Virus record (IMG/VR): IMGVR_UViG_3300032294_001028 | Span: 1-38,591 of that record | DNA length: 38,591 nt | Reading direction: 5' to 3' (one strand) | Origin: a virus | Lineage: Duplodnaviria > Caudoviricetes | Shown: in pieces, positions 10,250 to 32,246 of the stretch | How positions within the stretch are numbered: position 1 is the first letter of the stretch | Layout: every line of letters begins with the position of its first letter | Notes under the pieces: model-generated | Told to the model about the DNA's origin: nothing | Seen by the model: the letters and a program-made list of their open reading frames with translations, nothing else | The model's database searches: none | Position numbers and translations under genes: made by a program

Positions 10250-10662
10250 TACTTGAAACGATATAGAAACATCATAACGGCTAAACAGGCCGCCAGAAAC
10301 AAAAGTAGGAAATCTTTGATCTTGCTTCCTTTAGTCTCAGGTTGAACAAGTTGCGGTGGACACTCTGCCTGAACAGATACCGGATACGGAACCTCCTTCA
10401 CTTGGGTCTTCACTATCATCTTATCTTGATACTTTGTGATCACAACGCGCACAGTGTCGTTGTCGATGACGGTGGAGTCCCCCGCTTCTGGAACCTCAAC
10501 GGTGTCCGTCAGGTAGATTGGCGGAGTCACAATCGTGTCCCATATCGTAACAACCGTGGGCTTCAAGATAGAAGGGTCCTTCTTGGCTGCTTGTTTCAAG
10601 TGCCACGTTGCGCTGCATCCTGTTAAGAATGCAGTTAGTGATAGGATTAAGATGTACTTCAT
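10249..10662 (-). CDS. Lipoprotein with C-terminal TM helix; unimolecular-spanin-like
   Basis: Lipobox LTGC at residue 16, DT-rich beta region, C-terminal FLLLFLAACLAVMMFL. Confidence 0.6.
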   Translation of the reverse strand: MKYILILSLTAFLTGCSATWHLKQAAKKDPSILKPTVVTIWDTIVTPPIYLTDTVEVPEAGDSTVIDNDTVRVVITKYQDKMIVKTQVKEVPYPVSVQAECPPQLVQPETKGSKIKDFLLLFLAACLAVMMFLYRFK

Positions 10663-13600
10663 TTCGTTTCGGGGATTTCATAACCAGTTAAAATGTAAAC
10701 CTCTTCTGCAGGCTTGAATTGACGCTTGATGTTCTTGTTAGCATCAACAATCATTTTGGTGTTACCCTTTTTAATGCCGATGTTTATGATTGCCTTGTAC
10801 ATCTTGCGAACTTCTTCAAGCTCTGCAAGGCGATTCCTGCGGGCGATACCAGTAAGATCAGTATACTGCTCTTGCTTGGTAGCAAACTGCTGACCAAAGA
10901 AATATAGCTGAGTTCCGGTGTCAAACGTGTAGTCACGGATAAATGCGCGCGATGTAACACGACCAACAGCATCTAGTGGACTGTATCGCTGTGCTTCAAG
11001 CTCGTAACGGCGAAGTTCGTCACGAACAGCAGACGTAGCAAACGGAGGAAGAATAAGAGACTTCAATGTATACCCACCGTATTTGTACGCCTTAGTAAAT
11101 GGGCTATCATAGCTGTTCACAATATCCTTACCGTAGATATCCTTTGAATCATATAGATTAAACAGGAACGTAACGGCCATATTCGGATTAAGCATATCCG
11201 TCATATGTCCAGGGAAGGACAGCGGATCAGTTACTACGTCGAAGATAGTTCCGTATGGATCCTCCATTGAGTAGTCATACGTGGTAGCAATTCCATCCTT
11301 AGTGATGCCAGTAGGAATGATGCTGTGTCCTTCCATCCAGTTAGGACGTAGAGCTTTGATGTCCTCTTCAAGTTCATCATCATCACCAAGCGCCATACCA
11401 GCAAGGATAGCAGGAATGGTTGCACGCATACCAAATACCGCGGCAGTACCCATAAGACGACCAACGCCAGCTTTCATATATTCAGCTTTCTGTTCGGCAG
11501 ACAATGAATTACCATCCTTATCCTTGCCTTTCATTGCTGTTTGGATATCCAAGTATCCATTTGCAAAGTTCGCAGTGAAACTTCTGAATGCCTCAAACTC
11601 AAACGACAAGAAGTCACCAAGTGGTAGCTGCGCAATGCGGTAATAGATTGGCGGAAGCCGAGAGAACGTAGGCGTAGATTGCTTTACTCGTTCAGCAGCT
11701 TCTTCGTGAACAAACTTCTTCTCTCCTTCTGTTAACTGATCGTAAGACTTACCAAACAGCTTGATAGAAAAACTTTTTATCTCCTTACGGAACACAACAA
11801 GTTTAGTGTAATCGTCCACAGAAGAGTACTTGTCTCCAAGCCACTGGTCAAATCCTTTGATGCGCTCACCTAGCTTTTGCATAGAGTTCAGGTAGTCCAT
11901 ATCGCTACCTATAGCGGCACGCTCATACATAGCATTTACGCCACCAATGAGGTTAGCATTCACGCCCTGACCAAGCAATCCAAACTCAGCCATAATATCA
12001 AGAAATGCTTCCGTCTCTGGGTCAGCACGCTTATCACGTAGAAGCTTACCGCGACGATTCAAGTCTTGAATGAACTCTGGATTGATTACGCCATTGGCCA
12101 TCATAGTCCACCATCCACCGGTAAGGTTCTTACGCCAAGTAGGTACGTTGTATATAACCTTCGACTTGCGTCCTAACAGCAAAATATTTAGATAAGTCTG
12201 GAACCAAGCCATTTCTGAATCGTAAAGGCGACGATCAGTGATAGCGTCAAACACATCTTTGTGTACGTACTTACCATTCAATGGAGAGAACTTGTCGTTC
12301 ACCTGACGGTATTCACCAGAAGCAATCTCTGCTTTAGTAGCTTCGGTCTTTACAAACTCAGTACCTTTAAACTGCGTAGCAATCTTAAGGATCATATCGC
12401 CCTTGTACTTAATATTGCTGAGTGACTCAGCTGTATCAAGGAAGCGAACAACAGGATCCTTCTCCTCCCCTAGTAGGTTACGGAACGTCTCTGGAAGATT
12501 TAACTTCTGCTTGAATTGCTTATCTGGCACTTTAATAGATGATGGGCTAACCATCCCAAGACCCTTGTACTTATCGCTTTCTCGAATCTTCTTAGCTTCT
12601 TCTAGATATGCTTTAACGTAGTCTTTAGCTTCAGCCTTTAGTCGCGGAGCTGCTTCTTCGATCTGCTTGTCTATGTAGTCATCCTTCTGTGCCAAGAACA
12701 GCGCTACGTTTTCATCAGTAATCTCAGAAGTGCCAATGAGAATATCCATAAGCTCCTTTTGAAGCTTAAACAACTTGCGCTTCTCATTAAGCTCAGTGCC
12801 GATCAGCTCAAGTTGAGCAATAAGATTCTTGACTTCGGTAGTCTTTTCTCCAGCTGGAAGCTGACGCTCTTCTTCGATAAGTTTTTCCCTAGCTGTTTCG
12901 TATGCCTTTTCAAGATTTGAGATCTCATCTCTTGTCTCTACTACGTCAAACATACTTACTAAGCTGTCAAACTCCTTTGAGTAAAACTCATTATATACTT
13001 CTTCAATGGCTGCTTTAATAGTAGCTTCTCCAGGGAAGAAACGCTTGTCCTTCCAGAATCGGTACGTTCCACGGAGGTATGTTCCGAGGTTTTCAAGTAT
13101 TGTATTCTGAAGATCGCGAGATAGCTTGGTGAATGCTGGGCTGAAGATTATGTCCTCACTGAGTGAGTCAATGTACTCGCGCATAGCATTCGACAAAGAG
13201 AACAGCAACTGTCCGTCTTTCTTATCGCGAAGGGTAGCTAATTCTTCTTCTGAAATAGATCCATCCATTACCTTACCAACAAGATCAGATGTTGCTTTAT
13301 CTGACTTGCGAAGCAGGTCATTCAAAGCGGTAGCGAACTCAGTAAACTTTTTGGCTTCACGGCTAAGCTGCGAGTTCAAGCTTTCCTTGTATGTACGGAT
13401 CTTGCGCTGCTCATCGCTCCACCAGAACGAACGCCAAGACTTTTTAGCTCGGTCTTTCCAGTCCTCCTGCTTGATGTCTAGGTCTTCAGTTTTTTCTGGC
13501 TCAGATATAGATTCACTGATAACACCAGGATTACCGAACTCTTCGTCTCCTGTATTTAAGTCGTCTACTAGCTGTTGGTTTATTGAAGCGTCTTGCTTTG

Positions 13601-16600
13601 CATTACCATCGTATTTTGTTACATCAGCAATCTTATCAAAGTAACGAACCAGATCTGGGTTGTATCCTTTCTCCTTGAATAGTTTGATCAGATTATCTAC
13701 AATTGCCTTAAGTGTGTTGTATATATCATTTAATATGCCTTCAGCACCGGCTTGGTTTGTATACCATTGATCAAACTGATTTGCAAAGTATTCTTGATAA
13801 CTATCCTTTGCGTTTACTCCACCAATCATTCCAGCGTTAATTGGAGCTGGAAATACCAAGCCAGTTAATTCTCTGTTCAAGAATTTTTCTGACATATACT
13901 TCATATAGTCAATACGATCCTGTGGACTTAGTAGATTAAAATATCCCCAATGACCTACTTCGTGGATGAACGTACTTCCATTGTTTGCTTTTAGCAAATT
14001 TGTAGCAAACTGATACAGATCTTTTTCACCCCTGAAGTTTATATTGAATAATTTATCGGATTTAATAGTATTGATTACAGACGCAAGAACATCCTTTTGT
14101 TTCTGACTTAATGATTGCTGTCGGTTTATTACAGATATAATTTGAGCCTTAGTCTTGTATATTACATCGTTCTTCTGAGCCTTTTGCATATCCGCAAATA
14201 ACTGCTCAGCTTGAAGATACGCTGGATTAAATCTATCAATATCAGCCTTAGTCCTTGGCGTGTACGAAGACATCATTACCAGTATGTCTTTAGCTGGAAG
14301 TATTCCTATGTTTTGTAAACGTAATATCTGACCAGTAATTTTTTGATTTTCCTTTAGATATTTGTTCCTGCTCTCAGACGCGCCGCGTTCTCTACGATAA
14401 ATCTCTCCAGTATTCAAGAATGAGAACAGCTCTGGATATGAAGTCTTAAAGTTTTGCTGCGAGATGAACGCATCTCCATTGGCATTAGTAGAAACAGCTG
14501 ATGGCGCTTCTTGCGCTGGAGCTTCTACAGGAGCAGCGGCTGGTGCTTTCTTCTCTCTAATCTTATCGAGTCTCTTCTGGGCTTTCTTAATATCAGCCTT
14601 TAATGCATTGATCTCATCCTTATATGTTTCAATGACATTCTCATAAGAATCTTTGGCGTCTTCGATTTGAGCCTTAAGATCGTCAATGAGATCACGCTTC
14701 TCGTCTGATGGGACCTTAGATGCTCGAACCTTGGCGATCTCTTCTTTGATGCGCTTTACTTCTTCATCGTAGTTTGACTTCTCCGTAGGGATTTCAAACT
14801 CTCTAAGATCAACAATCTTACTCTCATTGAGTTCAATTTCAGACAGAAGCTGATTCTCTTCGTCCGACACTTCCTCTGTTGCAACAACTTCTTCCGATGG
14901 AGCTGTTTCTTGAACTGGCTGCTCTACTGGAACTGGAGCTTCTTCAGCAGCTGGAGTTTTTTTAGCTTCAGTTGGTTTTACAATCTTCCCAGTAGATGTT
15001 TCAATAATTTCAATAGACTCTGGATTGAATACTACGAAATTCTTAGCGTCTCCGTAACCACCTTTTGAGTTGTATACAATGCCATCGTATCCAGATCTCT
15101 TTAAGATTTCAGTAGTTCTCTCTTTCCCTAATGCATCCTGAAGATCTAAGATTGCAGCAAAATTTGGAACATTATCCCACTCTATAGAAGCTCCCTGCTC
15201 ATTTCCAGCATATTCTGTTTCAGACAAGAAGTCGTTGAGAATACCAAAATAAGATGAAGGTTGTTTTGTGTCAAAGTCAAACTTATCTAGGTAGTCTTTA
15301 TATTCTTTTAATTCTTGATCAGTTAGTTTTATTTTATTAAGATCTCCATCTAATATTGGATCCCTAAATGGAATCCAATTCTTACCAACTCCATCCTTGA
15401 TCTTGACGGTATAGACTACACCAGTTTTGTCATCGGAAAGCTTTTTTGCATAAGATTTTGCAATGTCTGAGGACTCAGTGAAGTATAAACCATACCCAAA
15501 AGCTTGCTGTCCTTCTCCGGTTCCAATCTTCTCCAATAGGAACTTGTCAAATTCATATGGGCTTCCGTGACGCAGAATTAAATCGCTACCTTCTACTGTT
15601 ATTTCTTGGGGCTTTGTGGCTTCAGGCCTTTCTTCGACAGGTACTTGAAGTACTCCACCTGCTTCAGGCGCTTCTTGGCCTGTTCCTTCGACAGGCTGGG
15701 CTTCGATAGGGGCTTCCCCTTCGACGACAGGACTTGGTACCCCTGCTTCTTCTTGACGATCATATTTATCAGATATTTGTTTGATGTTATCTAGTAATCC
15801 GCGAACTTCAGACTTTAGCTGTTCTGCTGCTTCGTCTGATTTAACTTGTCTTAGCTGCCCTACTTTAGCTTTGAGCTCATCTTGAAAAGACTTTAGCTGC
15901 GTTTGATCTTCAGGAGTCATACGAGCTACTTTCTCATCGTCACGACGCTTCAGCTGTTCAATGCCATCAGTATATTCTTGAGCCCGGCGACCAAGCACTT
16001 CTTTCTCCTGTTCGGTAAGATCTGGATCTTGAGCTGCCTCTTGTGTCTTCTTAAGGCCTGCTCGAAGACCGCGAATCTTAGCCTCGTTATCTGGATCTAC
16101 AATAGCTCCAGCCCCGCGGCTAAGCAAGTACACACCACCGCCAGCTGCACCACCATAGATAGCACTCTCGGCAATCTCAATAGGGTTGAACTCTTCTCCG
16201 GCAATAACTTTAGCAAGGGTCTGTTGTGCTACGCTAGTAAGGACTTCTTCTGTTCCTTCTTCCATTACACTACGCACACCCCTTGGAACTGCACCGAACA
16301 GCATATCGCCAAGCTCTTTCTTGGTCATACCCTCGATAGCCTCTTTGCTGAAAGCCTTACGGAGCATATTGACATCGCCAAGGAACAGCTTCTCAGCCAA
16401 GTATTCTGCAGCACCTACGCCAATACCATACAGCATCTTCTCTCCTTCTGATAGATCAGAACGATTCTGTAGTTCAGCGTATCCAGATCCAGCAGCAGAA
16501 GCACCAAGCAATCCAAGTCCAGCAGCGCCACCAGTAGCGGCTACCGCGGCAAGCTGTGGTACTTGCTGCACAAGTGTGGATCCAAAGATTGCGAGTCCAG

Positions 16601-17363
16601 CGCCTACGTTGCCTTCGCCAATGTTGCCTAGAAAACCTTTTGAAATCTCGTCTTCGGTAAGCCCGTAGTCAATCAAGGCGTCACGGCTACGTTGTGCTGC
16701 GTCATCAAGAAAGAAACTAGCAAGTTCGCTGTCTTGTCCGGTAATCATTTCGTTGAACTTCAAAAGTCCACCAACTATTGACTCAGCACCAGCAGCTACT
16801 TCGCTAAGAACAGGAACAGTAAACTTAGATCCAAGATCAGCCTTGCGCTGTTGTTCTTGCTTAATCAGTTCGTTTACGTAATCAATAGCGCCCTTCTTCA
16901 GTGTGGGCACAACAGCATAGTCAATCTCACCAGTTTGCGTTACTGGATTCTGAGGGAGTACAGCGGCACGAGGGTCGTCAGATAGAGAACGGTAGGTGGT
17001 GTAAGCGTTAGCGAATGCCTGCTTATCTTGGATCTTGTTGAGGTCACCCTTTGCTTTGGCAACAGCAGTGTATACCTGCGCCGCTGCAGCGTCGGCAATA
17101 GCTTTCTTCTGCTGCTTGATGGCAGCCTCATTAAAGCCGAGCTGTACTCGCTCGCTACTTAATGATTCCGATACAGATGGTCGCAGATCCGATTGAGAAG
17201 CGGATTCCTCTAAAGCGCTTGGACTTTTTTTTTTAATGTATGAGTCAACGGACAGAACGCCTGCGTCGTCAAGTCCATTGTCCTTCAATACCGTGAGAAT
17301 CTGCTCTCGACTACGGCCAGCGGCCATAGCGCGTTCCACTAAAGATTGTAGCTCTTCGTTCAT
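10659..17363 (-). CDS. Giant virion cargo/ejection protein (polyvalent: ART-like and HExxH metallopeptidase domains)
   Basis: 2234 aa, last of three cargo genes. HGSP...IGTGEGQQAFGYGLYFTES (ART-PolyVal-like), TFIHEVGH...QEYFANQF, and a Gly/Ala-rich hydrophobic N-terminal region. Confidence 0.8.
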   Translation of the reverse strand: MNEELQSLVERAMAAGRSREQILTVLKDNGLDDAGVLSVDSYIKKKSPSALEESASQSDLRPSVSESLSSERVQLGFNEAAIKQQKKAIADAAAAQVYTAVAKAKGDLNKIQDKQAFANAYTTYRSLSDDPRAAVLPQNPVTQTGEIDYAVVPTLKKGAIDYVNELIKQEQQRKADLGSKFTVPVLSEVAAGAESIVGGLLKFNEMITGQDSELASFFLDDAAQRSRDALIDYGLTEDEISKGFLGNIGEGNVGAGLAIFGSTLVQQVPQLAAVAATGGAAGLGLLGASAAGSGYAELQNRSDLSEGEKMLYGIGVGAAEYLAEKLFLGDVNMLRKAFSKEAIEGMTKKELGDMLFGAVPRGVRSVMEEGTEEVLTSVAQQTLAKVIAGEEFNPIEIAESAIYGGAAGGGVYLLSRGAGAIVDPDNEAKIRGLRAGLKKTQEAAQDPDLTEQEKEVLGRRAQEYTDGIEQLKRRDDEKVARMTPEDQTQLKSFQDELKAKVGQLRQVKSDEAAEQLKSEVRGLLDNIKQISDKYDRQEEAGVPSPVVEGEAPIEAQPVEGTGQEAPEAGGVLQVPVEERPEATKPQEITVEGSDLILRHGSPYEFDKFLLEKIGTGEGQQAFGYGLYFTESSDIAKSYAKKLSDDKTGVVYTVKIKDGVGKNWIPFRDPILDGDLNKIKLTDQELKEYKDYLDKFDFDTKQPSSYFGILNDFLSETEYAGNEQGASIEWDNVPNFAAILDLQDALGKERTTEILKRSGYDGIVYNSKGGYGDAKNFVVFNPESIEIIETSTGKIVKPTEAKKTPAAEEAPVPVEQPVQETAPSEEVVATEEVSDEENQLLSEIELNESKIVDLREFEIPTEKSNYDEEVKRIKEEIAKVRASKVPSDEKRDLIDDLKAQIEDAKDSYENVIETYKDEINALKADIKKAQKRLDKIREKKAPAAAPVEAPAQEAPSAVSTNANGDAFISQQNFKTSYPELFSFLNTGEIYRRERGASESRNKYLKENQKITGQILRLQNIGILPAKDILVMMSSYTPRTKADIDRFNPAYLQAEQLFADMQKAQKNDVIYKTKAQIISVINRQQSLSQKQKDVLASVINTIKSDKLFNINFRGEKDLYQFATNLLKANNGSTFIHEVGHWGYFNLLSPQDRIDYMKYMSEKFLNRELTGLVFPAPINAGMIGGVNAKDSYQEYFANQFDQWYTNQAGAEGILNDIYNTLKAIVDNLIKLFKEKGYNPDLVRYFDKIADVTKYDGNAKQDASINQQLVDDLNTGDEEFGNPGVISESISEPEKTEDLDIKQEDWKDRAKKSWRSFWWSDEQRKIRTYKESLNSQLSREAKKFTEFATALNDLLRKSDKATSDLVGKVMDGSISEEELATLRDKKDGQLLFSLSNAMREYIDSLSEDIIFSPAFTKLSRDLQNTILENLGTYLRGTYRFWKDKRFFPGEATIKAAIEEVYNEFYSKEFDSLVSMFDVVETRDEISNLEKAYETAREKLIEEERQLPAGEKTTEVKNLIAQLELIGTELNEKRKLFKLQKELMDILIGTSEITDENVALFLAQKDDYIDKQIEEAAPRLKAEAKDYVKAYLEEAKKIRESDKYKGLGMVSPSSIKVPDKQFKQKLNLPETFRNLLGEEKDPVVRFLDTAESLSNIKYKGDMILKIATQFKGTEFVKTEATKAEIASGEYRQVNDKFSPLNGKYVHKDVFDAITDRRLYDSEMAWFQTYLNILLLGRKSKVIYNVPTWRKNLTGGWWTMMANGVINPEFIQDLNRRGKLLRDKRADPETEAFLDIMAEFGLLGQGVNANLIGGVNAMYERAAIGSDMDYLNSMQKLGERIKGFDQWLGDKYSSVDDYTKLVVFRKEIKSFSIKLFGKSYDQLTEGEKKFVHEEAAERVKQSTPTFSRLPPIYYRIAQLPLGDFLSFEFEAFRSFTANFANGYLDIQTAMKGKDKDGNSLSAEQKAEYMKAGVGRLMGTAAVFGMRATIPAILAGMALGDDDELEEDIKALRPNWMEGHSIIPTGITKDGIATTYDYSMEDPYGTIFDVVTDPLSFPGHMTDMLNPNMAVTFLFNLYDSKDIYGKDIVNSYDSPFTKAYKYGGYTLKSLILPPFATSAVRDELRRYELEAQRYSPLDAVGRVTSRAFIRDYTFDTGTQLYFFGQQFATKQEQYTDLTGIARRNRLAELEEVRKMYKAIINIGIKKGNTKMIVDANKNIKRQFKPAEEVYILTGYEIPETK
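15599..15763 (-). CDS. Overprinted small basic protein (54 aa) nested in an alternative frame of the giant cargo gene
   Basis: MIVKKKQGYQVLSSKGKPLSKPSLSKEQAKKRLKQVEYFKYLSKKGLKPQSPKK. Resembles a stand-alone small phage protein pattern (MI.K..GY.V.S.KGK.L......A.KRL.QVEYFK) and has an A-rich leader. Confidence 0.7.
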   Translation of the reverse strand: MIVKKKQGYQVLSSKGKPLSKPSLSKEQAKKRLKQVEYFKYLSKKGLKPQSPKK

Positions 17364-17386: not shown

Positions 17387-18880
17387 TTAGTCGATAATCG
17401 TGACGCCTAGATTGCTTTTTATTTGATTATCTAAATTCTGCTGGCGTCTTTGACTTTCTTGGTTTATGCTTTGGAAATATTCTTCTACGCTAGGTACGTT
17501 TGCTTGAGGTTGCTCAGCCTTTTTTGTTCCTGCAAACTGAGATTGTGCAAACGTCTCTGAACTCCATACTCCGTCACCAGAAGGCTGGTTTCCACCTCCG
17601 ATAAGAGCTGCTTCAGCACCTTTAATGTCAAGCTGTCCAGACGCTGCTGATTGAGCTTGCGATGTGCGACGAATCTGTGAAGAAGGAAGCCCCTTGAAGT
17701 AAGAGTCAGATATACCATCTGTAACTTGACGAAGCACAGAAAGATCCGCTTGGGTAGCAGGACGAGCTTTTTCTTCCACAGCTGTAAACTCTTGCCCCGA
17801 TGCATCAATGCGCTTAACGCGCTGAGCTTCAATTACATATGGGTTACCATTAAGCTTTCCGAACTTAATAATTTCTCCGCCTTTTGATTTTACAGGAGCA
17901 AAATCAATTGGAATCATATATCCATCAGCAATGTTATTTCCGCCAGACTTCAAGACGTATGGAGCAGGATCGATACCAAAGTATTTGTTCTCTTTCTGCT
18001 TGGCATTAAGCTTTGCGTACTCAAGTGCAAGTTTACGATTAGCCTGCTCTACCTCGAAGCGGTTGATTCCGCGCTCAGGTACCTTAGCCATAAATGCAGC
18101 GATAGCCTTATTATTGTATGAATCAATAAGGTTCTGTTTAATGGGAGCAAAAGCTTCAGTGTCAATAATATCTAGGTCAGCACGGCTAGTTAGTTCTCCG
18201 TTCTTTCCAATCTTTTGTTGAGACACACCCTCAAATACAACAGCATTCTTTAGCTGCGCTGGGTCAATATTACGCGCCTGCAAAAACTCTTGAGCAAACT
18301 TCTCTGCTTTTACTTGGTCGATTGAACCATCAGACTTGATGAAATCATTCTTGTTACGATCAAAAGCAGCAATCATCTCGTCAGCGATTTGATTGGGGCT
18401 TTGCATATCGTATTTATACTTCGGCATCAGCGTAAACGGATTAGATGCCATAGACATAATCTGATTAGCATCACGCTTTGTTGTGCGCTCACGGTTGAAC
18501 ACGTCAACAGCATTTTCTCCACCTAGACTAAACTGGTCTGGATTAGCATTGTAAGCAGACCACTGTTGACGGTAGTTGTCGGCCAAGAATTGTGCTGTTC
18601 CGGCAATTTGGTTGTACTCGGCATTAGCCTCGCGAACCTTACGGCGAAGCTCAACATTGTCCGGGTCAGTAGCCAATTCGCCAAGCGCTTTCTCTACTTG
18701 ATCGTATGATTGTTGAACAGCTTCACGGTCTGCATCAAGATATGTTCCTGCTTTCTTTTGGAACTGCGAAGACCACTCGTCAAACTGTAGCTGCTTCTGG
18801 CGCTCCTGTTCGTTAAGCTTGTACTGAAGTTCTGCGAAATTAGGCAGATTGATTACGCCACTTGGAATTAGTTTTGCCAT
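17387..18880 (-). CDS. Probable virion cargo/internal protein
   Basis: 497 aa, helical and Q/A-rich, lying between the other cargo genes. Confidence 0.65.
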   Translation of the reverse strand: MAKLIPSGVINLPNFAELQYKLNEQERQKQLQFDEWSSQFQKKAGTYLDADREAVQQSYDQVEKALGELATDPDNVELRRKVREANAEYNQIAGTAQFLADNYRQQWSAYNANPDQFSLGGENAVDVFNRERTTKRDANQIMSMASNPFTLMPKYKYDMQSPNQIADEMIAAFDRNKNDFIKSDGSIDQVKAEKFAQEFLQARNIDPAQLKNAVVFEGVSQQKIGKNGELTSRADLDIIDTEAFAPIKQNLIDSYNNKAIAAFMAKVPERGINRFEVEQANRKLALEYAKLNAKQKENKYFGIDPAPYVLKSGGNNIADGYMIPIDFAPVKSKGGEIIKFGKLNGNPYVIEAQRVKRIDASGQEFTAVEEKARPATQADLSVLRQVTDGISDSYFKGLPSSQIRRTSQAQSAASGQLDIKGAEAALIGGGNQPSGDGVWSSETFAQSQFAGTKKAEQPQANVPSVEEYFQSINQESQRRQQNLDNQIKSNLGVTIID

Positions 18881-19854
18881 TACTTCTGCTTATTGAATTT
18901 CTTTAATAGTTGACGGAAGTAAGCACTTTCCTTGCTAAGTTTCTTTTGCTGTTCTGGATTGAGTATTACCTCTCCTCCAGTCATCTCACCAATCTTCTTG
19001 CCTTGGCGTACGATATCGATAGGATTCGTCTTGTGGTCAAACTTACCTTCAGTCATCATACCGCCATCTTTCTTATAGAATGAACGATCTCTTAGGATTT
19101 CTGGGTATTCTGCCAAACCAAAGATCTTTGCGCCGCGGCTTTCATCAGTTTCTGGAATCAATGGAACTTGTTCTTCATCCATACCAGCCTGAATATCCAT
19201 AAGATTCTGATTGATCAAAGCCTGCTCACCACCAGTCTTTCCTAAAGAAGCCAACGTCTCTGTACGCATTTGATCCTCCATAGTTGGAACTGGTTCAGTT
19301 GGCGTAGTCTTCTTCTTTGCACTCATACCACTGTAAATAGCGGCAGAACCAATCTGACCAAGACCACCTGAAATATTCTGTAGGCCACCTTCGATTGCAG
19401 CTTGAGCAGCACCGCGCTCCATCATCTCACGCTGGTACTCACGAGTAAGTTCATTCTCTGCACCTTGTGCGCCAACTTGAAGTGCCTGTAGCGTTTGTGC
19501 TTGACGCTGAGCAAGAATATCTAAAGCTCCAACATCCCCAGCACGAATCATACCTGGAAGAGCTCCAACAAGGGCACGACCACCAGCCTGCTGTGCGGCT
19601 GCGATTCCGGTAGCAATAGAACGATTGAGTTCCTCAAGGCGCTTCTGCTCCAGCTCAGCGTTACGTGCTTGCTTCAGTAGCTCAGCATATTCCGATGGAC
19701 GAGCAGTTGATGCCTCCTTGATTCGGCTTGCAGCTCCTTGTCCGGCAAGCATCTGGCCAGCCCCAAACAGTGACTGTAAGCCACCAAGGGCAGCAGCAGC
19801 TACAAAGCCTCCTCCTGCGTATTTTTTCGTGTCTTTACTCTTCTTTGATCGCAT
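18880..19854 (-). CDS. Probable cargo/pilot (DNA ejection) protein
   Basis: Gly/Ala-rich hydrophobic segments plus coiled coil; C-terminal GG..G.FDH..NP....EMTGGEVI motif recalled from crAss-like cargo proteins. Confidence 0.65.
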   Translation of the reverse strand: MRSKKSKDTKKYAGGGFVAAAALGGLQSLFGAGQMLAGQGAASRIKEASTARPSEYAELLKQARNAELEQKRLEELNRSIATGIAAAQQAGGRALVGALPGMIRAGDVGALDILAQRQAQTLQALQVGAQGAENELTREYQREMMERGAAQAAIEGGLQNISGGLGQIGSAAIYSGMSAKKKTTPTEPVPTMEDQMRTETLASLGKTGGEQALINQNLMDIQAGMDEEQVPLIPETDESRGAKIFGLAEYPEILRDRSFYKKDGGMMTEGKFDHKTNPIDIVRQGKKIGEMTGGEVILNPEQQKKLSKESAYFRQLLKKFNKQK

Positions 19855-19870: not shown

Positions 19871-22800
19871 TTATTGTCCGAGTTGGTTATGTAAGTTGGA
19901 CTTAGCGTATACTAAGTTAACAGCGTAAAGCTCTACCTCGCTTGTTGAAGTGTTTGACAGTCTAGCTTTCACGTAGTAGTCACGGATGTTGTCTCCTTCA
20001 ATTGCTCCGTTGGCGATTACTACGATTGTATCTCCAGCACTTACACTCACTATGGTTCCACTAGCTGTTATCTGGTTCAGGCCACTAATGGCTGTTACCG
20101 TGAGGTTTAGTGTAACCAGTGTAGCTCCGCTAACCTTGTAGAGTGATCCTCCGATTGGGAACGGAATATCGCCCACTGGAGTGGTAAACGTGAGTGTCGA
20201 ACCGCTTACTCCACCGGTAGCTACTGCACCAAGTGTAAACACTTCCGAAGTTCCAGACAACTTAGTGATTGTAGAAGAACCAGTGTTGACACTGCTGTCG
20301 CGCGGCACGTAGGCGTACCAGTTACGCTCACGCTCACTGAAGTCTCCAGTTAAGATAGTAGCAAGCTGATCAGTGTTCGTGATGGTTGCTGCCCACGCGC
20401 TGTTACCTTCAAGGCTGATGGCCTCGTATGACTTCACCATAGAAGGGTTGGCATTGCTCACCACCTCGACAACAGCAGAACCCTGAACGCCGTAGTAGTT
20501 TGCACGGCTAACAGAGCTGTTGTGTGAGTACATAACTCCGTTCTTAAACGTGTAGAGCTCGTCGTCAACAGCAACAATAGCTTCTGGACGGTACGAGTAC
20601 TTGGTATTCCACACGTTTTCCTCCACGTCGTAAGCTACCGTAAAGTCGTTCACAAGGCTGCTTGGTGAACCTATTGCACCAGAGAAGCTTCCACAGTCGT
20701 TGGTGAAGTAGAACTCACCAGTAGACAGGTCAAATGCAATCGTTACAAAGAAGCTGTACGCCGTTTCGGTGGCTACGCCATATATAATTCCACTTTGACC
20801 GATAAACTCCTCACCAACGTATGCAGGCTGCCCATCAATAAGCTTGTCCAAGAACACGATACAGTTAAGGCTGTCGTCAAACTCATCACACAAATCGTCA
20901 AACTCACGGATCTCGGTAGAGAAGGTGAACAGCTCATCGTCATCAAAGTCAACCTCTGCAATCACTCGGTTTCCTGCTGCATTAGTCTGTACGTTGTACG
21001 TGTTGTACGGCTCACCTCCAGATGAGATTGTAACGGTTGCGTTGTACAGCAGCTCTGTGGAGATAATGTACTCGTCAGCCTCTACGTCAACTCCAGCAAT
21101 GACCTTGTTTGAAGAAGACAGCGTGGTAAGGTAACGGAAGTTCTCCTTAAAGAATGCGTCCATCTTAACCTCGCTGATCAGTGTGATTCCGTCACGAGCT
21201 ATGCGAACAACCTTACCAGAGCGAATGTCAGCAAAGTAAATACGACCACGATCAAATGCTAGAGACTCTGGGTTGTTGTTGATTCCGTAGTCTCCGAGGT
21301 AGTAGTTTGGCGCTCCAACTACGTTGCGAGAAAGCGTCAAGCTTTGAGCTCCGTCGCTAGACTCGATGATGTTACGACCAACAGGTGTCCATCCAGCCTT
21401 ACGTTCTTGGATGATGTACATACGATCATCGTCACCAACAAGCTGCTTTACTGTTCCGTATAGGTACTGGAAGTCGTAGAAGTTTGCCAGCGATGGGTTA
21501 AAGCTTGACAGACCGAGGTATTTGCTGTCCACAATGAATGGATCAGAGTACGTCACAGAAGCCCTGCGGAACACAGTCTGTGCGTCCGGCTGAACAGCGT
21601 GAGGACGACCAGCAGACGTAGACTTGGAAGAGAAGAAGTCGCTTACAGAGTAGTCCTCAATAAATCCAAACTTAAAGTTGTTTGCATAAGCCTTCTCTCC
21701 AACCTTCAAAAGTCTTGGTCGGTAGTATACGTCACCCTGAGACAATTGAACTACGGCATCATTGCTGTTGGTAAGGTTAAGCGTATAAGTAGTTAGAGAG
21801 AATGAACCACTAACAGTAGACGCATAAAATACGTAGTTGTATGGGCTATTTACTTCTGGATATACGTTCTTTACAACAAGCGTATTTCCGGAACCATCCG
21901 TTAGAACATCACCTTTGTACGCAATGATATTTGAATAAAGCTTCAAATTATCTCTAGCATCAACCTGCACACTTACCAAGAATGGGCTAACAGTTGTGCG
22001 CTGGCCGACGTGCACACCGTTTACTACCGGAAAATTCTCTCCAACCTCATAAAAGATTTGCTGTTGAGTGGGTTTGTTCTGGCGGTATATCTCAATTATA
22101 CAATCGTCATTCCAGTTGTCTTCTCCGGTGATTACGCTATAGTTATCCCATCCTTCAACACTAGATGACCGAACAGCAATGAACTTACCGGTTGTATTAA
22201 ACAAAGCCTCATCACTTGTTAAGTCAACGATTGGATTGCTGTCAATATCATCTGTAAACTCAAAATATCCAAGTACCTCAAGGTCTAATGTAGAACGGCT
22301 TACTGATCCGTACTGAACAATCCTTAATCGATCACCATTTTGGTATACATATTCAGTATTAGCTCCGAACCCATCTTTGTATGAATCGCTCTTTCCTTCG
22401 AGTGATCGCATAGATAGGTACGTTACGTCTTCAAATGAAGATATACCTGCAAATGGCTTTGCCTGAAGGTTTGTTGCAGTAAATGCTCTAATGACTGTAT
22501 ACTGGAACTTCTGTGTAATGTTATTTGTCGTAGCGTATACTGGCGCCCATTTTTTAGCCCAAGAAGGTGCGGCGTGTTTTATTCTGAATACCGAATCAAC
22601 TCGTCCATACAAATCATTTTCAACAGCCCTGTTGTCGTACCAATTGACGTACATATCGGGAACAGTTTGCACACCACCATTTCTATTGAACTGATCGTAG
22701 TAAACAATTCCAAATGAATGCGTAGCACCAGCTTTAAATGATTGATTTGAATTTATGTTTCCTCTAGACAAGAATGATCCATCAATGTATTCGGCATCTT

Positions 22801-24733
22801 CTACATCTCCATCAAGAGTCAGATATCTAGAGATTAACTCACCAGTACCTGCTCCAGACGGGACAAGAACTTCGTTTCCTTGCTGAAGCACAATTCCTGT
22901 CCCAGCATAACTATTGAAGGTTTCAAAGTCTCCCTTGTATATGATAGATGGTACGTCTACAAAGTTTATCTTGTTGAACAACTGATTGGTGGCTGGAAAC
23001 GCTTCGTTTAATGATCTTCCACGTGTAAAAAGTGAATTGATCATACTAATTGGAGGAAGTGATCCTAGCGCATTAAGTATATTACCAGTATTAAAATTGT
23101 ATCCAGCTTTAGCAGATAGTGCAGCACTATCCATAGAGATAGAGAATCTAATTGTATTTGAATTCTCACTTTCAACATCTATGTTTATCTGAGCAGCGCC
23201 AGAGAAGAACATAAATTTGTTAGGCTTTGCGGGGCTATTTGCTTGGAGCTCCTTTACCGAAGTTAGTTCTGTAGCATAATCAAACTCCGTGATGTCTGAG
23301 TCTAAAACTACATTGTATATGTCAGATATCGTAGACTTAATAATGTCAACAACTTGACTCTTAGTTTGTCCAGCAGATATGTATACTGTTTTATTTAGAG
23401 ATAATGGGGAAGCCTTAACGTAAACGTAGTCATCTATTACAGCAGCATAATCGTTGTCCTGCTGAGTAACTTTATCTGTCTGAACCCACTGAAGGTAGTA
23501 TCCTATCATTACCAGTTCTATGCGTCCAAAATTCAATCCAATGTTTATGGAAAGAACCGAGTCACTTTCAACAACAGCTGGAAGTGTAGAGATGTCTAAA
23601 TCAAAATGACGACGCTTTAAAAAGTCAGTTTCACCAGTAGCAGATGGATATGTAACGCTTAACTCATACTCTGACGGTGCCGGAAAGTAGTTGGGCAATA
23701 CATCAACGTCGGTGCGGATGTTTGCATATCCTTCGGTATATCCGCCGAGCATAAGGCGGTTACCAGCAATAGTCAAAGCCTCTGCTGTTTGTGGTACGTT
23801 GTCGTACAATTTGTTTACCTCATCCTGAGATACGGCAGAGAATAACTTTGAGTTGTCAAAAGAGATAGACTGAGAAACTACGCTGTTGCTGTTTACTAGA
23901 ACGCCAATCTCATAGAATGCTCTAGCATTTCCATTACGAGCAAGAACGATAATTTCTTTTACGTCAGCAGCAGATGTCGGTACTGAAATCGACAGTGTAT
24001 TATTTGCAAGCTTTTGCTCTTCGTCAATGATTCCGTCAAGAAACTGGTTCTGAGCAACAGCAAGTTCAGAGTATGGGCTAAGTGCAGAGCGCTCGCCATC
24101 TTCGTAAACGTACTGTGCAGCAAACTGAAAGGTTGACTCGTACAGGTCATTCTGCTTAAGCGCAGGGTTGGTAGAGAACGTAAACGTAGGTGGCGTCATT
24201 GGCGGCTGCTTAGCAACAGCAATGCAGGCCAGCTTCTCGGCATCGGTTCCGCTAGTAAACGCCGCTGGATACAGCCCTAGGAGCGCTCGTGTTACGTTAA
24301 TCTTCTTTGGATCGGTGTTGGCATCCGTAAAGTACAAAAGCGTCTCTCCGTCCAAATTCTTTACTACCGAAGCACGGATGTGGTAGAACTTAGAGAATCC
24401 AAGAATCGAGTCGCGGTATACAAGCTTAGCCTCATTTGAAGAGGTAGAGAAGCGGTAGATCGAATGGTTCTCATTGCTGTTCCAAACAAAGAAGAATATC
24501 TCTCCGCTTTGCGGGTTAGAGATGGCTCCGATCACCGTATTGTTTCCAGCTGCTAGTGCGCTGCCAGAAGCAAAAAAGATGGGTGTGTTACCGTAAGCGT
24601 TTTTGATTACACCACCGTCACCGTCTTGTTCTGAGCTGATGCGTACGTTTACGGCATCAGTCATCTCAACGCTTTTAATCAGACGTTCGTCATCATCAAG
24701 GTTTAGGGACCGAGGTATAAGTTTGTCAATCAT
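19871..24733 (-). CDS. Tail nozzle/muzzle (stabilisation) protein, crAss-like
   Basis: 1620 aa, beta-rich. N-terminal LNLDDDERLI...DAVNVRI, LYFTD...PKKIN, GNRLMLGGY.EGY and YGINNNPES; follows the ring genes. Confidence 0.75.
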   Translation of the reverse strand: MIDKLIPRSLNLDDDERLIKSVEMTDAVNVRISSEQDGDGGVIKNAYGNTPIFFASGSALAAGNNTVIGAISNPQSGEIFFFVWNSNENHSIYRFSTSSNEAKLVYRDSILGFSKFYHIRASVVKNLDGETLLYFTDANTDPKKINVTRALLGLYPAAFTSGTDAEKLACIAVAKQPPMTPPTFTFSTNPALKQNDLYESTFQFAAQYVYEDGERSALSPYSELAVAQNQFLDGIIDEEQKLANNTLSISVPTSAADVKEIIVLARNGNARAFYEIGVLVNSNSVVSQSISFDNSKLFSAVSQDEVNKLYDNVPQTAEALTIAGNRLMLGGYTEGYANIRTDVDVLPNYFPAPSEYELSVTYPSATGETDFLKRRHFDLDISTLPAVVESDSVLSINIGLNFGRIELVMIGYYLQWVQTDKVTQQDNDYAAVIDDYVYVKASPLSLNKTVYISAGQTKSQVVDIIKSTISDIYNVVLDSDITEFDYATELTSVKELQANSPAKPNKFMFFSGAAQINIDVESENSNTIRFSISMDSAALSAKAGYNFNTGNILNALGSLPPISMINSLFTRGRSLNEAFPATNQLFNKINFVDVPSIIYKGDFETFNSYAGTGIVLQQGNEVLVPSGAGTGELISRYLTLDGDVEDAEYIDGSFLSRGNINSNQSFKAGATHSFGIVYYDQFNRNGGVQTVPDMYVNWYDNRAVENDLYGRVDSVFRIKHAAPSWAKKWAPVYATTNNITQKFQYTVIRAFTATNLQAKPFAGISSFEDVTYLSMRSLEGKSDSYKDGFGANTEYVYQNGDRLRIVQYGSVSRSTLDLEVLGYFEFTDDIDSNPIVDLTSDEALFNTTGKFIAVRSSSVEGWDNYSVITGEDNWNDDCIIEIYRQNKPTQQQIFYEVGENFPVVNGVHVGQRTTVSPFLVSVQVDARDNLKLYSNIIAYKGDVLTDGSGNTLVVKNVYPEVNSPYNYVFYASTVSGSFSLTTYTLNLTNSNDAVVQLSQGDVYYRPRLLKVGEKAYANNFKFGFIEDYSVSDFFSSKSTSAGRPHAVQPDAQTVFRRASVTYSDPFIVDSKYLGLSSFNPSLANFYDFQYLYGTVKQLVGDDDRMYIIQERKAGWTPVGRNIIESSDGAQSLTLSRNVVGAPNYYLGDYGINNNPESLAFDRGRIYFADIRSGKVVRIARDGITLISEVKMDAFFKENFRYLTTLSSSNKVIAGVDVEADEYIISTELLYNATVTISSGGEPYNTYNVQTNAAGNRVIAEVDFDDDELFTFSTEIREFDDLCDEFDDSLNCIVFLDKLIDGQPAYVGEEFIGQSGIIYGVATETAYSFFVTIAFDLSTGEFYFTNDCGSFSGAIGSPSSLVNDFTVAYDVEENVWNTKYSYRPEAIVAVDDELYTFKNGVMYSHNSSVSRANYYGVQGSAVVEVVSNANPSMVKSYEAISLEGNSAWAATITNTDQLATILTGDFSERERNWYAYVPRDSSVNTGSSTITKLSGTSEVFTLGAVATGGVSGSTLTFTTPVGDIPFPIGGSLYKVSGATLVTLNLTVTAISGLNQITASGTIVSVSAGDTIVVIANGAIEGDNIRDYYVKARLSNTSTSEVELYAVNLVYAKSNLHNQLGQ

Positions 24734-27159: not shown

Positions 27160-27753
27160 CTAAGCAAAGCGAAAATTTGGATACTTATCTGATAAACATC
27201 TGCGCTTTACGTCTGTGGCTGTTATTCCAAACTTCTTTGCAGCTGCGGTTTGCGATTCATATAATTCACCATAACAAATGACAGCAACTTTATCTTTTCT
27301 TGACGCTGACAATTTCTTTCTACGTTCTTCCGTCCAAGGTGCTGACTGTGCGTGAAGCCAAGCTTTTCTCTCCCTGCTCTTTTCACCTATTCTTTGTTTT
27401 CTCTCTTCAGTAAATTTTACGCCAGTAGCTGCCTTACGCATTTTCTCTTTAGTCTCATCAGTGCATTTGTAGCCTGTTCTACCATCGCCGCCATCTGTCA
27501 TATTGCAAAGTGTACCAGTGCCTCGATCAATTCTTCCGAATGCGGATATGTAGTGTATTTCAAGCTGTTTGGCTTCGTCTTGAGTTAATTCTTTATGAGG
27601 GAATTCTATGGTATAACCGTGCTTCTCAGCTATACGCTTCCAGAACTGCGACCTATTTGATTCTCTATACGCTCGCCGACCAATTCCAATTCCAACATAA
27701 AAAACGACTCCATCGTCAGCACGCTTGTGAAAGTATATGTAATGTTTTTTCAT
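27160..27753 (-). CDS. Free-standing GIY-YIG homing endonuclease with NUMOD3-like repeats
   Basis: YIY...FYVG.G..RA, E...I...G, LCNMTDGGDG; repeats ETKEKMR, ERKQRIG and ERRKKLS; AT-rich. Confidence 0.85.
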   Translation of the reverse strand: MKKHYIYFHKRADDGVVFYVGIGIGRRAYRESNRSQFWKRIAEKHGYTIEFPHKELTQDEAKQLEIHYISAFGRIDRGTGTLCNMTDGGDGRTGYKCTDETKEKMRKAATGVKFTEERKQRIGEKSRERKAWLHAQSAPWTEERRKKLSASRKDKVAVICYGELYESQTAAAKKFGITATDVKRRCLSDKYPNFRFA

Positions 27754-31210: not shown

Positions 31211-31373
31211 TCCTCTTTGCCTTTCTGTTGTCGTAGATTTCGTAAATCTTATATCCGGTATAGAAGATTGAAAACAACAGCAGTATAATTTTCAATGTCT
31301 GCTCAATGTTTGAGAATGACAGCAGCATAGTTCCGCCATTGATTGCTGCAAGCTTTACGTCTTCGTGATTCAT
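31200..31373 (-). CDS. Small membrane protein, 57 aa, holin/antiholin candidate (not in ORF track)
   Basis: MNHEDVKLAAINGGTMLLSFSNIEQTLKIILLLFSIFYTGYKIYEIYDNRKAKRNGQ; ATGA-coupled to the upstream gene; basic tail. Confidence 0.7.
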   Translation of the reverse strand: MNHEDVKLAAINGGTMLLSFSNIEQTLKIILLLFSIFYTGYKIYEIYDNRKAKRNGQ

Positions 31374-31588
31374 TTCTTAGCAAATTTTTCTACTGCTGTT
31401 CCGAAGAACATTGCTATTGTTAGGTATTCAACAGCCTCAACGAGTTCTTTGCTGGGAGCTATTTCTTTAGGAGAGAAGCTGTTGGCGATCATCGTTCCAA
31501 AAAGAACTAGGGCGCCAAGGATTCCTATGACTCTTTTAGACGACACCTCATCGCCTACGCCAAGTAATTTAGTCATCCATTGCTTCAT
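31370..31588 (-). CDS. Two-TM membrane protein, holin-like (72 aa)
   Basis: SSKR followed by two hydrophobic helices. ATG31588 avoids the overlap with the upstream gene. Confidence 0.65.
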   Translation of the reverse strand: MKQWMTKLLGVGDEVSSKRVIGILGALVLFGTMIANSFSPKEIAPSKELVEAVEYLTIAMFFGTAVEKFAKK

Positions 31589-31592
31589 ATCG

Positions 31593-32246
31593 TTAAGCAG
31601 TAAAATATGTTCCACTAAGAACGATAGTTCCAGCCGCAACATACGCAGCTTCTGAGCGAGCACCTCCGCCAACCGGAATCTCGACAAGCGCAATCTGTTG
31701 AGTTGCTGGTTGACCCTCCGCGGCAAGAATTGTATCTGCACTAAAGGAGAAGTTAGCGTCAGCAATTGTAAATGCCGGGAACGTGTATGTAGCTGGGTTT
31801 GCAATAGCAAATGGAAGTCCAGCAATTCTTAAATCTCCAGTTCCAGTACCACTAGACCAAGTAATGTAAACCTCAAAGTGCACAGCTCGACCGATCTTAG
31901 TATAGTTACCGTGAGCTACAGCATATGTAGCCGATCCATCTGTAGAGCTTCCAACTACCGATGGTGTAAAACTGTTTTCTTCGTAGTCGTCAAGAGTGTT
32001 GGCGGCAGCAGTGTCTGTTCCAAACAAGATGCCTTGTGATGCCCGTACAGAACCCACAACGTCAAGAGTCTTTGCGGGAGTAGCCGTACCAATGCCAACA
32101 GCTGTGGTTGAGATTGCAAGTGCAGAATCGTTTCCAGACCCGTCGCTAAGGTATTTAGCTGTTGAGTTGATAACGGTCGTGTTAGAGGTCTTAATGATAC
32201 CTTGGTAGGTATCCTTAATTGCGGTGTTGATGAGCGAAGTTCCCAT
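31593..32246 (-). CDS. Short tail-fibre / spike-like virion protein
   Basis: VGIGTATP, GILFGTDTAAANTLDDYEE..FTP, YTKIGR.V and GLPF. Confidence 0.7.
   Translation of the reverse strand: MGTSLINTAIKDTYQGIIKTSNTTVINSTAKYLSDGSGNDSALAISTTAVGIGTATPAKTLDVVGSVRASQGILFGTDTAAANTLDDYEENSFTPSVVGSSTDGSATYAVAHGNYTKIGRAVHFEVYITWSSGTGTGDLRIAGLPFAIANPATYTFPAFTIADANFSFSADTILAAEGQPATQQIALVEIPVGGGARSEAAYVAAGTIVLSGTYFTA

Follow-up and report, generated by a model that had tools for sequence, protein, structure and literature searches.

The DNA analysed here, a 38,591-nucleotide stretch of a virus assigned to Caudoviricetes (IMG/VR record IMGVR_UViG_3300032294_001028, positions 1 to 38,591; the whole stretch is called the window below), carries a small basic gene that lies wholly inside a much larger one. 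On the minus strand at 15599-15763, a frame of 54 codons runs from its own ATG to its own TAA within the open reading frame (ORF) of a giant polyvalent protein of 2234 amino acids (aa; 10659-17363, minus strand). It has the same orientation as the giant gene and starts at its codon 534, 1600 nucleotides into the ORF, in the +1 frame. Comparative evidence strongly supports this small frame as a real gene of an unnamed family. We propose that it is translated on its own and that its product, a protein with a net charge of +15, likely binds phage DNA at packaging or inside the head; taken as a whole, we give this explanation an even chance.

Translation of 15599-15763 yields a peptide identical to that quoted in an initial annotation of this DNA, which had noted a 54-codon ATG-to-TAA frame at the acidic linker of the giant protein, had likened it to stand-alone small phage proteins and had expected gene callers to miss it. 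The last expectation holds for the nested state by construction. Length by itself is within chance, since this giant contains three +1-frame ATG ORFs of at least 54 codons. The nested frame stands above chance because of its homology, its kept nested position and the selection specific to its frame.

The stand-alone homologues were found by sequence search. Among candidate small proteins of 29-95 aa, 78 of 82 match the nested peptide at E ≤ 0.001, and a profile of 56 family members matches 2606 clusters at 50% identity. The profile also matches 1474 proteins of at least 96 aa among 7995 scored; many of the shorter members of this set look like over-long start calls. The Atlas clusters of the family are labelled "hypothetical protein" and added no name. 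Conservation is centred on residues 1-43 of the window's protein, which contains no cysteine and no hydrophobic signal.

Independent of the small protein, we searched with residues 200-530 of the giant only and obtained 75 full-length giants of 28-100% identity, the window's own included. The N-terminal region leads straight into a shifted-frame trace of the nested gene in 74 of them, and a dipeptide compatible with a +1-frame ATG is present in all 74. In the window, the conserved helical N-terminal region (giant residues 204-533; 15765-16754, minus strand) ends exactly where the nested gene begins. The following acidic spacer of the giant (residues 534-588, net charge -10; 15600-15764, minus strand) is the shifted-frame reading of the nested gene. 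The sole exception, P0154 (1838 aa), is the most distant giant (28% identity) and has another low-complexity linker after residue ~703. Downstream of the nested gene the sequence is hypervariable and differs even between very close relatives.

We then compared both frames in 52 distinct nested copies, which were picked by the small protein (L028 and L085 were left out). The 41-codon core is free of indels in all 52. Differences at positions 1, 2 and 3 of the small-frame codons amount to 0.28, 0.20 and 0.45, and amino-acid identity is 72% in the small frame versus 42% in the giant frame. In pairs below 20% divergence, the ratio of nonsynonymous to synonymous differences (pN/pS) is 0.19 for the small and 1.97 for the giant frame, so that the alignment of homologous cargo genes, suggested earlier as a check of the frame in which synonymous changes accumulate, places the constraint on the small frame. 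In the five closest relatives, whose contigs are also returned by the N-terminus of the giant, the third-position difference of the giant is 0.036 in the overlap versus 0.14-0.60 in eleven intervals upstream. Synonymous difference at identical residues falls to 0.07 at codons 541-580, the lowest 40-codon interval of the whole giant, with values of 0.17-0.67 elsewhere.

The wobble positions of the small gene reveal what is asked of the other frame. A T at four-fold sites before AA, AG or GA, which would create a stop in the giant frame, occurs at 0 of 394 sites in nested copies, compared with 18% and 11% in solo copies. Lysine and arginine make up 5% of the shifted frame in nested and 17-21% in solo copies. 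No shifted-frame stop is present in any of 50 nested copies, whereas stops occur in 15 of 16 solo copies from viruses and in 57 of 76 copies from cellular genomes; this rules out that the giant is really made of separate genes flanking the small one. Both frames are therefore under selection, the small frame for its protein sequence and the giant frame to stay open and non-basic. From the pN/pS and wobble data, the sequence of the spacer follows the small gene, and the wobble positions are spent on the giant frame. The earlier view of the linker as a by-product is right in that the small gene dictates what the linker reads; the wobble choice shows, however, that the giant frame is also actively kept open and non-basic.

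For initiation signals, we trained a start matrix on 27 gene starts of the window, which are A-rich and lack Shine-Dalgarno motifs. Such starts have been described for Bacteroidetes (PMC6847099), and on this basis we infer a host in the Bacteroidota. The nested gene is preceded by an A-rich, unstructured region (15764-15783, minus strand; encoded within giant codons ~527-533) with A at -3, as first described, and the matrix places its ATG ahead of 98% of the giant's remaining 63 +1 ATGs. For 48 distinct leaders of nested copies, the median percentile amounts to 0.95, with 30 above 0.9, and folding at the nested ATGs is weaker than at other +1 ATGs (-1.2 versus -5.1 kcal/mol). The A at -3 is found in 55% of nested copies and is thus not strict. 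In L136, L081 and L085, which belong to other phage groups, the leaders contain a Shine-Dalgarno motif spelled by glutamate codons of the giant; L067 and L081, as expected, receive low scores from the A-rich matrix. The predicted start signals therefore follow the phage group, being A-rich here and of the Shine-Dalgarno type in others. A scan for internal promoters, whose scope did not extend to Bacteroidota promoters, gave two σ70-like sites where 1.9 were expected. Relatives appear in four RNA runs as low-depth contigs, which carry neither strand nor expression level. Based on these leaders, independent internal initiation of the nested gene is very likely, and the start would be used on the late structural mRNA.

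The family occurs in three genomic states: nested, stand-alone and fused in frame. With the peptide as query, 25 of 28 viral loci carry it in nested form, within ORFs of 1700-3100 aa and in their +1 frame. With the wider profile we took the best 80 of 453 viral loci, and we also examined 80 of 167 loci in cellular genomes. De-duplication of the viral set left 77 loci, counting the window, of which 55 hold a nested copy, a share biased by the use of the small protein as query; the frame relation is always the same and the position varies from host codon 289 to 1588. Cellular genomes contribute two more nested copies, L120, from a Prolixibacteraceae genome, and L136, whose contig was binned as Pelotomaculum, the latter repeating the layout of the window with a tail protein followed by genes of 202, 486 and 1411 aa. 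A second near-identical prophage copy of the L120 region (L116, in the same Prolixibacteraceae genome) has a giant frame that stops 28 codons past the nested gene.

Stand-alone viral copies were found at 18 loci, and a terminase or portal gene adjoins the solo gene in six of the ten for which neighbours were scanned. In the cellular set, 77 of 80 loci hold non-nested copies. Those standing alone in chromosomes (L115-L194) are mostly 43-50 aa long, highly conserved and equipped with Shine-Dalgarno motifs, and come from Acidobacteriota, Patescibacteria, Micrarchaeota and Alphaproteobacteria (including Rhodospirillaceae). The sampled neighbours are unrelated housekeeping genes, with no fixed partner and no functional clue. 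These homologues constitute, in their own right, an unnamed cellular small-protein family. In-frame fusions join the domain to a portal protein (P0203) and a head maturation protease (P0239); further partners are 2H/Acb1-like, InPase, cytidyltransferase, ligase and nucleotidyltransferase domains. Among 50,697 cultured-phage records, the small protein gave one weak match (E 0.1), an unannotated stand-alone copy in Aeromonas phage 1233 (OR359403.1; L114:4001-4132) located ~400 bases beyond an 812-aa gene, where a same-strand block ends. The same records contain no nested example and no match to the N-terminal region of the giant.

In a tree of 75 proteins, nested copies cluster and six changes of state are needed (6-8 in bootstrap replicates), the branching being mostly unresolved. 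The tree was built without L024, L026, L027, L028, L085 and duplicate sequences, and 14 of the 80 genome loci were supplied to it. Chromosomal copies form a separate, well-supported sub-branch. A single origin of nesting is compatible with this tree. The gene is also carried by hosts whose upstream region fails the window's profile, which suggests that the family has moved between hosts.

Based on these observations, we consider it probable that nesting arose by engulfment. An old mobile gene would have come between the conserved N-terminal region of an ejection protein and its exchangeable effector cassettes, either by read-through fusion or by cassette recombination as proposed for polyvalent proteins (PMC5512222). 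The shifted frame would then have been retained as an acidic, flexible spacer, with stops and basic residues purged at the wobble positions of the small gene. Of the two origins considered in the initial annotation, engulfment and overprinting, the first is favoured, as the small frame is the older and more widespread one and also stands alone. De novo overprinting of the small frame is ruled out by its far wider distribution (2606 clusters, with stand-alone copies in bacteria and archaea), while the spacer of the giant exists only over the small frame.

What the product does is a more tentative matter. AlphaFold predicts a three-stranded sheet plus helix for the 54-aa protein (predicted local distance difference test, pLDDT, 90.9), of which one-third is lysine or arginine. 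The folds matched are YegP/DUF1508 (3bid, 6q2z, 2k7i), YaiA (2kvt), the lambda integrase arm domain (1z1b) and the AP2/GCC-box domain (2gcc), with Z scores of 3.1-4.2, a root-mean-square deviation of 2.6-5.3 Å over 47-50 residues and 11-17% identity. All share the topology predicted for the small protein; their scores do not exceed those expected for a common arrangement, and none has a profile match to it. The lambda integrase arm domain and the AP2 domain bind DNA. Viral structural look-alikes are weak (E 0.4-1.0) and lie within a prohead protease and an XkdF protein. Because of its charge, its type of fold, the terminase and portal neighbours and the head-protein fusions, we propose a head- or packaging-associated DNA binder, a role we put slightly short of an even chance; folded as a small basic sheet-plus-helix domain, it would contact phage DNA at packaging or inside the head. 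A DNA-binding core protein, one of the two roles suggested in the initial annotation, is likewise plausible.

Several observations weigh against the proposal. Searches against Pfam, PHROG, NCBIfam and PDB sequences put no family name to the small protein, and none of the 56 members has a Pfam match. Structural comparison with the PDB gave weak matches (Z at most 4.3, Foldseek E > 1). The nested gene is not universal: P0154 lacks the trace, and in L028 (3294-3392) the copy has decayed to its first ~16 residues while the host frame is still open. For the majority of the 41 longer fusions scanned, neither a named partner nor a head protein was identified. The giant itself is likely a podophage ejection protein, an identity taken from gene order only. 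Finally, the 77 of 80 cellular loci where the gene is non-nested, amid unrelated housekeeping genes, are unexplained by a purely virion role.

This last point bears on the main alternative, that the gene is separately translated but its product acts in the cytoplasm on a host target such as the nucleoid, RNA polymerase, the ribosome or a defence protein, with nesting tying it to late, high expression. Chromosomal copies with Shine-Dalgarno motifs in such varied surroundings, from Acidobacteriota to Micrarchaeota, would fit this, as would the fusions to enzymatic domains (2H/Acb1-like, InPase, cytidyltransferase, ligase, nucleotidyltransferase) and the weak fold matches to YegP/DUF1508-type proteins. 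We nevertheless regard it as less likely than a role in the head: the solo genes of phages tend to lie by terminase and portal genes, the chromosomal copies form their own sub-branch, and InPase and 2H fusions are found in virion-packaged proteins as well (PMC5512222).

Alternatively, with the nested gene right behind the conserved N-terminal region of 74 among 75 close giants, the small protein could be a dedicated partner of that region, as a chaperone, counter-charge or loading factor, in the way Rz1 serves Rz. The giant has a net charge of -70, opposite to the +15 of the small protein, and a small core protein of T7 aids core and channel assembly (PMC11784390). We judge such a partnership improbable, since the gene is also nested at codon 289 to 1646 of hosts whose upstream region fails the profile, and phages as well as chromosomes encode the same protein where no ejection gene is near.

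A third alternative has the frame reached by a +1 shift from the giant, giving a fusion of N-terminal region and basic domain and no free small protein. The domain is often used in fusions and P0227, one database protein on one contig, is exactly such an in-frame product, although a one-base indel would explain it equally well. The ATG-compatible signature in 74 of 74 giants and the initiation-like leaders that switch with the phage group speak against a shift. In L091, L060, L068 and L070, moreover, an in-frame stop lies 0-1 codons ahead of the ATG, leaving no room for a shift site and disfavouring entry by frameshift. We consider this route very improbable.

Two further ideas can be dismissed. 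The initial annotation had proposed the small protein as a partner of the ADP-ribosyltransferase (ART) domain that begins at giant residue 591, three codons past the nested stop (ART-PolyVal, PF18760; residues 591-792; 14988-15593, minus strand; 37.3 bits, cut-off 31.2). This domain is on record in 9 of 75 giants compared with 74 of 75 for the nested gene, and in 1 of 24 further hosts scanned, where a long distance separates it from the nested gene; in L007, a relative of 94% identity, another cassette takes this place. A toxin-inhibitor pair is thereby largely ruled out, the domain being an exchangeable cassette and no fixed neighbour, and a partnership of any kind is scarcely credible. Equally remote is the idea that no protein is made and an RNA or DNA signal or the linker itself is conserved, for which the chance-level ORF length might be cited, since variation concentrates at the wobble position of the small frame (0.45 versus 0.28 and 0.20), the 41-codon core is indel-free in 52 of 52 copies, and the same protein stands alone where the shifted frame has stops (15 of 16 viral, 57 of 76 cellular copies).

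The host gene deserves a closer look. In the podophage window, a tail muzzle/nozzle gene of 1620 aa (19871-24733, minus strand; PF25729, phrog_14478), which marks the podophage tail operon, is followed by genes of 324 aa (18880-19854, minus strand; no convincing family match), 497 aa (17387-18880, minus strand; no family match) and 2234 aa, which from their context are likely the first, second and third ejection (core) proteins. As in L136, the giant is the last and largest of the three, and in other nested loci it is likewise preceded by mid-size genes. It has no sequence match to the ejection-protein structures solved in the PDB, and the model of its N-terminal region is weak (pLDDT 55.7). 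The hosts carry InPase, kinase, LPD38, GGDEF and PLxRFG domains, in cassettes that vary between relatives.

Three known systems offer comparison. In the Rz/Rz1 pair of lambda, as here, a small gene lies wholly within a larger phage gene in the +1 frame (PMC6139136). Spanin partner genes also occur in overlapped and separated layouts, and stop-codon read-through is discussed as a route to embedding; the same study found no spanin family in which embedded and other layouts are mixed (PMC6139136). The present case differs in that nested and stand-alone copies belong to one sequence family, the host measures 2234 aa, and the nested protein is a predicted soluble basic domain without cysteine or lipoprotein signal. 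Polyvalent proteins are giant multi-domain proteins thought to be packaged and injected, for which cassette recombination was proposed, and they share ART-PolyVal, InPase, kinase, LPD38 and PLxRFG domains with the hosts studied here (PMC5512222). The text of that paper treats their genes as single-frame: it contains neither "overlap" nor "small gene", and "nested" refers to a hairpin. Podophage ejection operons resemble the window in that the tail nozzle gene is followed by three genes that increase in size, and small accessory core proteins such as gp6.7 of T7 exist (PMC11784390, PMC11440229). The giant differs from the proteins of these operons in having no sequence match to solved structures. 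The small core proteins of T7 come from separate genes.

Nested +1 genes of phages are thus already known from Rz/Rz1, while this family and its nesting in a giant ejection or polyvalent gene appear to be new, as far as the literature covered extends. It yielded no account of the family, nor of any gene nested within an ejection or polyvalent gene, with subscription papers poorly represented and a possible listing of the domain in the supplement of PMC5512222. With one family found stand-alone, fused in frame and fully nested, the older frame can be identified and the locus provides a clean natural case of the origin of a gene overlap, in which the spacer in the new frame was shaped through wobble positions. 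In a giant virion gene that evolves fast, the best-conserved piece is here a different, unannotated gene, and low-complexity acidic linkers of phage polyvalent proteins can hide genes. The unnamed family of at least 2606 clusters is put forward for functional study.

Nesting may not be limited to this family. We clustered all +1 ATG ORFs of at least 28 codons in 55 hosts and found four recurring frames (B, C, D and E) with lowered synonymous difference of the host inside compared with the flanks: 0.16 versus 0.36 for B, 0.08 versus 0.26 for C, 0.014 versus 0.195 for D and 0.07 versus 0.41 for E. Each comprises 3-9 related loci, chosen for recurrence. Family B is located at L014:6331-6459 and in L202-L212, family C at L017:9139-9297 and L055:7695-7844. 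In families D (L001:6694-6834, L002:6712-6852, L213-L218) and E (L019:8566-8721, L199-L201), with products of 47-53 aa, synonymous change of the host has collapsed. D and E vary mostly at the wobble position of the +1 frame, which is not clearly the case for B and C. All four are candidates for further nested +1 genes. None was detected in the giant of the window, and narrow exact-word searches gave no stand-alone copy. Directly ahead of C, D and E lies a shared unnamed domain of 16-28% identity (L195:3520-3999, L213:2490-2999, L199:2370-2999, L055:7124-7693), which may resemble a SAM-lyase-type fold; a sequence search gave no support for this.

The giant gene of the window also contains a second putative dual-coding element. 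A run of ten A at giant codons 44-47 (17225-17234, minus strand) is followed by a conserved 25-codon -1 frame (17155-17232, minus strand) that has a stop before it and no start of its own, and synonymous difference dips around this site at giant codons 31-100. Runs of at least nine A are found in the first 80 codons of 42 of the 55 hosts and nowhere in the other 357 kb, and in hosts with the run a basic, aromatic -1 frame of 21-58 codons comes after it. The run is likely a site of slippage or frameshifting that would give a short product of ~69 aa.

These features lead us to a tentative model, which we hold at a little under even, of giant ejection genes as Russian dolls whose acidic spacers are shifted-frame shadows of small genes carried in effector cassettes. 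A single ORF would then encode the giant itself, a short form made by slippage, a conserved basic protein of the head and cassette-specific small proteins, the last of which might regulate the neighbouring domain or act as its immunity partners. The basic domain may serve as a portable tag for DNA binding or head loading, reused across phages, bacteria and archaea, whether alone, fused or nested. If this is true, a whole layer of phage small proteins is invisible to annotation.

Of the 13 DNA runs that contain this stretch (the possible source left out), ten have a freshwater or aquatic label. Elsewhere in the window, a homing-endonuclease-like gene (27160-27753, minus strand; phrog_314) is placed within the structural operon just downstream of a 479-aa virion gene. 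At 31370-32246 (minus strand), two ORFs in different frames, of 217 and 151 aa, share ~230 bases, a possible frameshift or split gene.

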